NCBI GenBank assembly: GCA_902761535.1
Contig: CACWKS010000002.1
Coordinates: 270,611 to 334,610 of the forward strand
Reading direction: 5' to 3'
DNA: 64,000 nt
From: an uncultured Pseudomonadota bacterium
GTDB lineage: Bacteria; Pseudomonadota; Alphaproteobacteria; RF32; CAG-239
The first letter of the stretch is position 1. Every line of letters starts with the position of its first letter. Below the pieces are notes generated by a model. The model was not told the DNA's origin and made no database searches. It worked only from the letters and a program-made list of their open reading frames with translations. The position numbers were made by a program, and so were the translations under genes. Of this stretch, positions 35,516-35,815 are shown in pieces.

Positions 35516-35544
35516 TAAAAAAACCACCTTTTAAGCTGAGGTGG
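35516..35544 (-). terminator. rho-independent terminator ending candidate sRNA (ccacct...aggtgg + U7)
   Basis: 6-bp stem 35524-35529/35539-35544, A7 on plus strand = U7 on minus. Confidence 0.5.
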
Positions 35545-35781
35545 CCGGAGAGTTAAGAAAGACATACATCGCTAAGTGCCCCCTTAGGTCTTTAGGATAT
35601 AAAAATCCCTGAACATACACCTAAAGCTCCCCGACCTTTGCAGTCGGGAATATATTTATCGCTTTCAAAATTTAAACAGCGACTAACGATGACATATTGC
35701 ATCACCGAGCAATGTAAAAGAGCTTCTTACGACTCCGCACCTACCTCTAGGTGCTAAACCGAAAAATCTTTTCGGCTCTGC
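35524..35781 (-). ncRNA. candidate small RNA (about 260 nt), unclassified
   Basis: own promoter TTGACA-17-TAATGT (35787-35815) and own terminator; upstream gene has separate terminator at 35866-35893; no long ORF; several internal hairpins; does not match tmRNA, RNase P, SRP or 6S motifs that I can recall. Confidence 0.3.
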
Positions 35782-35786
35782 CCACA

Positions 35787-35815
35787 ACATTAATGATGTT
35801 TTGTTTTGATGTCAA
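35787..35815 (-). promoter_or_regulatory. sigma-70-like promoter TTGACA-N17-TAATGT
   Basis: minus-strand read ttgacatcaaaacaaaacatcattaatgt. Confidence 0.5.

Follow-up and report, generated by a model that had tools for sequence, protein, structure and literature searches.

The window analysed here, 64,000 nucleotides (nt) of contig CACWKS010000002.1 (GenBank assembly GCA_902761535.1, positions 270,611 to 334,610) from an uncultured alphaproteobacterium of the RF32 lineage CAG-239, carries on its minus strand an RNA of about 265 nt directly upstream of a gene encoding a GT2 glycosyltransferase. The unit is confirmed as a real structured RNA, beyond chance, and is a member of a family that is widespread in gut Alphaproteobacteria and on alphaproteobacterial plasmids and is almost entirely unannotated. 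With a probability of roughly 0.6, it is a bistable, terminator-coupled, cis-acting 5′ leader, that is, a riboswitch-like transcription attenuator, for the gene that follows it, which in this locus is the GT2 gene.

A structured RNA between a conserved promoter and terminator

The RNA lies between a −10 box and an intrinsic terminator, and contains no conserved open reading frame (ORF). A preliminary description of the sequence had proposed the promoter TTGACA-17-TAATGT, which is indeed present, although the term near-consensus was slightly generous for a −10 box of this kind; it is because this box agrees with TATAAT at only three of six positions that the promoter is absent from the list of a consensus scan. 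The promoter appears to be constitutive and of the sigma-70 type. The core of the terminator is formed on the minus strand by CCACCT (35544-35539), AGGTGG (35529-35524), and T7 (35523-35517), as the earlier reading had it; G-U pairs lengthen the stem to GGCCACCU/AGGUGGUU, and its loop of 9 nt is above the limit of the terminator scanner. The U-run is separated by 23 nt from the ATG of the GT2 gene, the product of which matches Pfam Glycos_transf_2 (E = 1.3e-35). The upstream gene (35912-36292) possesses a terminator of its own (35891-35870 followed by T9), which was likewise predicted correctly. This second terminator, which follows the 126-aa gene, is a symmetric hairpin with T-runs on both strands and a terminator-like score in both directions.

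The minimum free energy (MFE) of the RNA is −92.8 kcal/mol, compared with −69.3 ± 4.3 kcal/mol in dinucleotide shuffles (z = −5.45), none of 200 shuffles being equally stable, and its G+C content of 0.42 is higher than that of the flanking DNA. The small ORFs within it are not conserved, being disrupted by indels and compensatory changes among the homologs, and a leader peptide was rejected on this ground. The original view of an ORF-less, highly structured unit is thus borne out, and the terminated RNA probably accumulates as a stable species.

Homologs were reached from a blastn search of phage records, which returned two partial matches in unverified human faecal contigs; the alignment of both matches exposed invariant strings that were then used for pattern scans. 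These scans retrieved six IMG/VR contigs and at least 120 metagenome contigs, mainly from human gut and rumen, and a hidden Markov model (HMM) confirmed over 110 homologs at full length, including 93 distinct sequences. RNAalifold analysis of six divergent members yielded 68 pairs, 27 of which show compensatory changes. A covariance model built from the trimmed alignment (R1) was used to align 109 matches, giving alignment A4 with 105 distinct sequences, in which 96.5% of cells show standard pairing and 50 of 58 pairs show double-sided changes, counts that are inflated by the fitting of A4 to the model structure. The covariation score of A4 is 0.512, and no more than 0.093 in controls in which the partners were slid by 1-3 columns. 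The comparative alignment suggested in the preliminary description therefore reveals strong covariation.

The same homologs also retain the signals at both ends of the unit. Among 86 distinct upstream regions of homologs, 56 carry the pattern TTGNNN-16..18-TANNNT just 5′ of the RNA, a single 20-nt bin accounting for 63 of the 88 occurrences of the pattern; promoter position, fold, and terminator are conserved jointly across more than 100 homologs. Conservation of promoter and terminator in relatives had been named beforehand as a point on which the original claim could fall; both are kept, and the claim stands.

The 5′ part of the RNA consists of a succession of hairpins and long-range strands (Table 1). 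Pairs 15-42 of alignment A2, which correspond to P0, are retained with compensatory changes, and P1 shows double-sided changes at all five of its pairs, with 97.8% of cells paired in A4. The long-range helices P2a, P2b, and P2c (helices 2-4 of A4; 5′ strands within 35708-35736) are 95-97% paired, P2a at 95.3%, and P2b and P2c carry compensatory changes at all 15 of their pairs, with four to six pair types in each helix. Double-sided changes are seen at 10/10 pairs of P4. Further towards the 3′ end, all eight pairs of the P6 arm covary, and P7 is 96.2% paired with double changes at three of four pairs. As the partners of P2b and P2c are a single-stranded joiner and the P7 loop, both helices could coexist with the junction formed by P6 and P7 as pseudoknots.

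Several of the conserved helices of the RNA exclude one another. The nearly invariant central strand GGUCGGGGAG can pair either with the 5′ partner to form P5 or with a 3′ strand to form the outer helix PA, so that PA excludes P5. P5 is 99.1% paired in A4, with compensatory variants in two homologs (L130:11342-11566 and L308:7010-7248), while for PA 99.2% of the cells in A4 can pair, and the helix covaries throughout the superfamily described below. Two divergent copies with the central strand GGGAUG show compensating changes for both the P5 and the PA partners. The PA 3′ strand additionally shares four nucleotides (CUCC) with P2a, and in more than 90% of the sequences the PA 3′ end and the bottom four base pairs of the terminator use the same nucleotides (A4 columns 453-456). 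The terminator itself covaries at 8/8 pairs and is paired in 97.2% of cells. For the window RNA, a fold with enforced PA has a free energy of −80.4 kcal/mol, compared with −92.8 kcal/mol for the nested MFE fold that contains P2, P5, and the terminator.

The loop of P3 is complementary to the AUAUCC or AUAUUC sequence of the 5′ partner, just 5′ of P5, in 63 of approximately 100 sequences, with a few compensatory variants. The conserved AAUAUAU at this place was also considered as an internal promoter and rejected, as most members read TATATC, in which the final key T is missing, and no −35 box is conserved; pairing with the P3 loop is more likely. An antiterminator composed of the P1 3′ strand and the terminator 5′ strand was discarded as well, owing to a mismatch in 36 of about 90 sequences at one position and in eight at another.

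Table 1. Positions of the features of the RNA, of its second copy, and of the adjoining genes in the window. A4 and R1, alignment and covariance model of the family; R2, covariance model of the junction core.
Feature	Position	Strand	Basis	Remarks
−35 box TTGACA	35810-35815	minus	read directly	6/6 to consensus
−10 box TAATGT	35787-35792	minus		17-nt spacer from −35; 3/6 to TATAAT
P0, 5′-terminal hairpin	35756-35778	minus	MFE fold	sequence variable in homologs
P1, hairpin GCACC...GGUGC	35737-35754	minus	helix 1 of A4	conserved UUAG on 5′ side
P2a, 5′ strand GGAG	35733-35736	minus	A4	
P2b, 5′ strand UAAGAAG	35723-35729	minus	A4	
P2c, 5′ strand ACAUUGCU	35708-35715	minus	A4	
P3, hairpin	35688-35706	minus	MFE fold	loop GCAAUAU in the window; family consensus GGAUAU
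P4, hairpin	35658-35683	minus	helices 5 and 6 of A4	variable
5′ partner AUAUAUUCCCGAC	35643-35655	minus	helix 7 of A4	forms P5 hairpin with central strand
Central strand GGUCGGGGAG	35627-35636	minus		5′ strand of PA or 3′ strand of P5
P6 arm	35582-35626	minus	helix 8 of A4	invariant internal loop GUAUG..CAG / CUAAAG; apical hairpin
P7, hairpin GGCA...UGUC	35560-35580	minus		loop doubles as P2c 3′ strand (35566-35573)
PA 3′ strand AACUCUCCGGCC	35543-35554	minus		CUCC alternatively pairs with GGAG of P2a; last 4 nt (GGCC) are base of terminator stem
Terminator GGCCACCU-CAGCUUAAA-AGGUGGUU + U-run	35517-35546	minus	read directly; helix 9 of A4	
GT2 glycosyltransferase gene with ribosome-binding site (RBS)-like GAGAG	34501-35505	minus	ORF list	GAGAG 35501-35505; ATG 35493
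Second, shorter, divergent RNA copy	46204-46357 (unit 46171-46361)	plus	R1, R2	
XRE (HTH_3) regulator gene, directly 3′ of second copy	46383-46874	plus	Pfam HTH_3, E = 4.6e-12	

Linkage to the downstream gene and the proposed attenuator

Comparison of 116 distinct genomic contexts reveals that the RNA is tied to the gene behind it. In 96 of 106 contexts, the downstream gene has the same orientation as the RNA, and its start mostly falls 0-35 nt beyond the RNA; the upstream gene is co-oriented in only 61 of 103 (61 to 42, a mixed arrangement). Because the downstream gene usually starts within 35 nt of the terminator, a separate promoter for it does not fit into the gap. The preliminary description had left open whether the unit is a free small RNA (sRNA) or a terminator-based attenuator; since the co-orientation is this frequent and the spacing leaves no promoter room, a free, discrete sRNA becomes less likely and the attenuator is favoured.

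The earlier association of the element with the GT2 gene, however, does not extend to the family. The RNA precedes genes for autotransporters in 25 contexts, pilin-like proteins with an N-terminal methylation motif in nine, secreted PLD-type nucleases in eight, XRE/HTH_3 regulators in six, and YpsA/SLOG proteins in five; rarer types, some of them seen once, include SNase, PD-(D/E)XK, and DUF805 proteins, many lipoproteins, GT2 enzymes, and GalE. These genes share no common pathway, secreted or envelope proteins being only loosely favoured, and none of the neighbouring protein families is constant across the contexts. As the downstream genes vary and no neighbour is constant, the element is modular rather than GT2-specific. 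An XRE gene was tried as a constant partner and rejected, the junction being found upstream in only one of 80 loci that encode XRE relatives.

In two loci (L290:7732-8576 and L301:809-1646, both on the minus strand), the RNA is repeated head-to-tail before one downstream gene, as two to three copies, complete or partial, that lie approximately 70 nt apart. The tandems recall the five tandem sRNA-Xcc1 copies of a Xylella island.

Taken together, the helices with their conservation and mutual exclusivity, the overlap of PA with the terminator, the promoter, and the co-oriented linkage are observed features of the family, and a mechanism can be proposed that connects them. Transcription from the sigma-70-type promoter would produce an RNA of about 265 nt whose 5′ half is complementary to both PA strands and to the P7 region. 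In the OFF state, which corresponds to the nested MFE fold, the 5′ partner would pair with the central strand (P5) and GGAG with CUCC (P2a); GGCC would be left free, the terminator hairpin would be completed, and transcription would end 23 nt before the GT2 start. In the ON state, PA, formed by GGUCGGGGAG with CUCUCCGGCC, would take four of the eight terminator base pairs, permitting read-through into the gene. The pairing of the P3 loop could hold the 5′ partner away during the formation of PA. We infer from this arrangement that the switch operates, that it does so in the direction given, and that read-through is the source of the mRNA of the gene.

The proposed leader resembles terminating riboswitches and attenuators in its 5′ position, its ornate conserved fold, the terminator just before the RBS, and the alternative helix that competes with the terminator; tandem units and many surface or secreted products are further likenesses, as c-di-GMP-I riboswitches precede adhesin and pilus genes. 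It differs from riboswitches in that no Rfam class matches it in sequence or structure, its downstream genes are heterogeneous, and its switching is predicted. No conserved leader peptide, linked protein, or known-aptamer match was found for the RNA in its ORFs, its contexts, and Rfam, respectively. A T-box leader was excluded, given that no Rfam T-box model matches at E<=10 and that the downstream genes have no link with amino-acid metabolism.

The three-way junction core and sRNA-Xcc1

The 3′ part of the RNA, in which PA encloses the P6 and P7 hairpins, contains a core that appears to recur far beyond the gut family. In weak HMM matches within high-G+C viral contigs, the same architecture was recognised by eye. 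Permissive Rfam scans of four independent members returned RF02221 as the sole sensible match in each, at its full length (1-87) and over the same part of the RNA, with scores of 32.6 bits for a copy on an Afipia plasmid (L362), 26.4 bits for L226, 24.4 bits for a tandem copy in L290, and 19.5 bits for the second copy in the window, all under the Rfam gathering cutoff of 53 bits; the main RNA of the window does not match RF02221 at E<=10. RF02221 describes sRNA-Xcc1, an integron-, transposon-, and plasmid-borne RNA of Xanthomonas. As none of 17 viral core-bearing loci reaches its cutoff, the Rfam model covers a narrow corner of a larger superfamily.

A test that does not depend on Rfam was carried out by scanning IMG/VR with the inner-loop pattern CGTATG..CAGG..CTAAAGG. 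Forty-two cores, including that of the window RNA and having many different outer helices, were aligned with MAFFT and folded with RNAalifold (alignment A5). The junction of PA, P6, and P7 was recovered unaided, with compensation at 23 of 28 pairs. The outer helix PA comprises 10 bp, with pair types GC:26/CG:13 at one pair and AU:30/GC:6/UA:5 at another. P6, the same arm as in A4 and here recovered independently, presents an invariant loop in which GUAUG..CAG faces CUAAAGG, and its apical hairpin often ends in a GNRA loop in relatives; P7 is a short hairpin (helix 72-78/92-96 of A5) with an invariant AAC 5′ of the closing strand. The internal loop of P6 (35588-35618, minus; A5 columns 25-33 and 58-64) presumably resembles the 11-nt GAAA tetraloop receptor UAUGG/CCUAAG. 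With R2, the covariance model built from A5, the core of the window RNA (35543-35636) scores 68.1 bits. The high-G+C form of the core matches 207 alphaproteobacterial plasmids, among them 91 of Agrobacterium and 63 of Rhizobium, and 163 of the plasmids are conjugative; the copies lie 5′ of co-oriented small genes and of HTH or RES-type pairs.

sRNA-Xcc1 has the same three-way junction as this core. In both, a G+C-rich outer helix (GGNCGGGG.../...CCCCGNCC) surrounds two hairpins, and the Rfam consensus outer helix GgCcGGggG/CccCCgGcC is the same as PA. The first arm contains the conserved AUAC/GUAUG..CAA and GAA/UAAAG loop, and the second, short hairpin is followed by UUU..GA.C ahead of the closing strand. 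Tandem arrays (PMC12189769) and a position 5′ of a gene are further common points, and sRNA-Xcc1 is borne on mobile DNA, as many homologs of the window RNA seem to be. The published loci of sRNA-Xcc1 include a position 5′ of symE in an integron cassette (bioRxiv 10.1101/2025.06.18.660453), another 5′ of an ORF6N-domain gene in APSE phages (bioRxiv 10.1101/2020.03.17.996009), and five tandem copies in a Xylella genomic island (PMC12189769). Within the literature found on sRNA-Xcc1, neither an established mechanism nor a cis-regulatory reading is given, and searches with sequence strings returned nothing relevant.

The RNA of the window differs from sRNA-Xcc1 in being three times longer, with a covarying 5′ domain of about 150 nt (P0-P5) between the promoter and the junction, and in having a terminator hairpin of its own, the stem of which overlaps the outer helix. 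The 88-nt transcript of sRNA-Xcc1 begins at the outer helix (PMC2996969), whereas the promoter in the window lies about 150 nt 5′ of the junction. The host ranges differ as well, sRNA-Xcc1 being found in Xanthomonadaceae and other beta- and gammaproteobacteria and the present family in gut and plasmid Alphaproteobacteria. Judged from sequence and predicted fold, the core is a distant relative of sRNA-Xcc1: the fold is common to both, while membership in RF02221 fails on score and on predicted transcript architecture.

A variant leader, located 5′ of XRE genes at L365:1339-1411 and in L368, is without the junction and keeps GAAACUCCUCCGACC. Its terminator has the form CUCCGACC-loop-GGUCGGAG followed by a U-run, the GGUCGGAG-like strand forming the 3′ half. 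The same complementary strands seem to be re-used there in a different order.

Competing explanations and wider setting

Several observations weigh against the attenuator. The pairing counts of A4 are inflated, as stated above, and the central strand is so nearly invariant that few substitutions are informative for PA and P5 within the gut family. The PA state would require an effector or the pseudoknots because it is 12 kcal/mol less stable in a calculation restricted to nested pairs, and transcript ends and read-through are predicted here. In the high-G+C relatives, the overlap between terminator and PA is not of the same kind; a crude test of the PA 3′ strand against the downstream RBS in the simple forms yielded no clear signal, with 5.4 nt paired, compared with 4.8 nt in shuffles, although about 10 of 35 cases look convincing. 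The functional heterogeneity of the downstream genes is unusual for a metabolite riboswitch, and sRNA-Xcc1 was published as a trans-acting sRNA.

This last point leads to the strongest competitor, a free-standing trans-acting sRNA gene that acts by base pairing or protein titration and stands before the GT2 gene by accident, mobile DNA being compact. Such a gene would be expected to have its own conserved promoter and an efficient-looking terminator, both of which are present, and the closest known RNA, sRNA-Xcc1, was detected as a discrete 88-nt species on Northern blots (PMC2996969) and was titled "trans-acting"; the family is also multi-copy at some loci and resides on mobile elements, like the Xylella copies (PMC12189769). 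However, 91% of contexts have a co-oriented gene behind the RNA, compared with 59% in front of it; the gene behind mostly begins at a distance of no more than 35 nt, which leaves no promoter room, and a simple sRNA offers no role for conserved exclusive helices that include the terminator stem. A free trans-acting sRNA is distinctly less probable than a cis-acting leader, and because terminated leaders can act in trans too, the two readings need not exclude each other.

A leader that marks the transcription complex, either as a processive antitermination RNA of the put or EAR kind or by recruitment of an antiterminator protein, with the terminator as a fixed barrier, would occupy the same position and would suit the diverse accessory and mobile-element genes downstream. 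In phage lambda, the PR′-tR′ region combines a promoter, a leader, and a terminator that is overcome by the antiterminator Q. Protein-mediated antitermination past a long leader has been described in alphaproteobacterial gene transfer agents, and in the BrrG/bgtA-K system of Bartonella a promoter, a leader of a few hundred nt, and a terminator precede mobile-element genes, with a short RNA as the default product (bioRxiv 10.1101/2024.11.20.624540). The order of promoter, leader of a few hundred nt, and terminator before mobile-element genes is common to the Q and BrrG systems and the present RNA. In those systems, however, a DNA-binding protein acts at the promoter and a conserved RNA fold is unneeded, whereas here the RNA structure is under strong selection; no Q-like gene is linked to the window-type RNA in the contexts compared, and no candidate partner protein is consistently encoded nearby. 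The RNA shows no sequence resemblance to put or EAR (Rfam negative), and an RNA switch would account more simply for the competition between PA and the terminator, so that a leader of this type is improbable.

A DNA-level element, such as a single-strand promoter or hairpin of a conjugative leading region or an integrase attachment site, might be suspected from the enrichment of relatives on conjugative plasmids (163/207) and from the relaxase or recombinase genes that adjoin some loci. This is very unlikely, as the U-run terminator and the sigma-70-type promoter are RNA-level features, many G-U pairs are found on the RNA strand only, sRNA-Xcc1 was detected as RNA (PMC2996969), no flanking direct repeats are present, and the position relative to integrases is inconsistent.

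A housekeeping RNA (tmRNA, RNase P, 6S, or SRP RNA) so divergent that standard models overlook it in an AT-rich genome can be dismissed: size and degree of structure would be compatible, and a GAUCACCA-like 3′ end in some high-G+C relatives resembles a tRNA acceptor end, but the CCA is not conserved, multiple or tandem copies occur at some loci, the window holds two divergent copies, the closest relatives have no copy beside hisS, and the association is with variable accessory genes. A two-piece tmRNA or tRNA-like acceptor end (GAUCACCA), considered by eye, was rejected because neither CCA nor T-loop is conserved. Rfam at gathering thresholds finds only three tRNAs in the whole window and nothing meaningful in the RNA region at E<=10, and ARAGORN, permuted forms included, finds no tmRNA; the initial failure to match the RNA to tmRNA, RNase P, SRP, or 6S is therefore upheld.

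The main copy of the RNA in the window resides in a variable region, since the closest relatives have different genes and no copy of the RNA beside hisS. HisRS (33113-34453, plus strand) is 76-80% identical to that of three Alphaproteobacteria metagenome-assembled genomes from ruminant and other gut samples; next to hisS, these three genomes carry other genes. The interval 34501-42626, from hisS to tRNA-Glu, differs from these three relatives and encodes the GT2 enzyme, the 126-aa protein without a Pfam match, TIM-barrel, GNAT, and 742-aa PcfJ-like proteins, and several further proteins without a Pfam match; from its gene content, it looks like an accessory or acquired region. Beyond the three genomes, HisRS is most similar to Clostridia/Bacillota enzymes (51-56%), a likeness that points to acquisition of hisS by this gut alphaproteobacterial lineage through horizontal transfer long ago.

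The second copy of the RNA in the window (Table 1) scores 21 bits with R1 (E ~1e-5) and 24.2 bits with R2. It is preceded by a promoter-like TTGCAT-17-TACCAT (46171-46199) and ends in a terminator formed by CCGCCUUGA...UCAAGGUGG and a U-run. The XRE protein encoded behind it is 52% identical to the XRE protein that follows the long-form RNA in L083. The copy is surrounded by the core genes pgpA, anmK, and an acyltransferase/AMP-binding gene, and it has no homologs in blastn searches of phages and plasmids or in nhmmer searches of the collected loci.

Many homologs lie beside recombinase, ParB, or phage genes or on conjugative plasmids. The main copy lies in the variable region, near the gene for the PcfJ-like protein, and the second copy and L083 are placed among core chromosomal genes. 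Seven loci (L083, accession MT835859.1, and L094, L095, L124, L130, L146, and L148) are filed as phage or viral, and the RNA in them adjoins alphaproteobacterial or island genes. By reading of ORF translations, neighbours there are SecB-, Tim44-, and MltA-like; elsewhere a serine recombinase, ParB, and a type I restriction enzyme are found. Instead of phage genomes, some of these contigs may represent stretches of a chromosome or of an island.

A broader and more tentative proposal, which we consider less likely to hold than the local one, is that the junction, which the window RNA has in common with sRNA-Xcc1 and with hundreds of copies on alphaproteobacterial plasmids and phages, serves as the sensor in a class of gene control that is so far undescribed, be it an orphan riboswitch or a switch that responds to a protein or to another RNA. 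The outer helix would turn the gene on by antitermination, as proposed for the window RNA, or by freeing the RBS in simpler forms, gating accessory, surface, or toxin-like genes on mobile DNA, and sRNAs of the Xcc1 type would be terminated leaders instead of dedicated regulators in trans.

If the RNA is a cis-acting attenuator, one modular cassette of promoter, bistable fold, and terminator would control dozens of unrelated accessory genes, and its reach would extend from uncultured gut Alphaproteobacteria to plasmids of the Agrobacterium/Rhizobium type and include adhesins, pilins, nucleases, regulators, and cell-surface glycosyltransferases. The family would add a widespread group missed at current Rfam thresholds, and would make the RNA a candidate orphan switch whose signal may report something general on the state of the mobile element or the host. 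For annotation, the gene behind such units should be checked before they are named independent sRNA genes. The long-obscure sRNA-Xcc1 fold would thereby gain a testable function.

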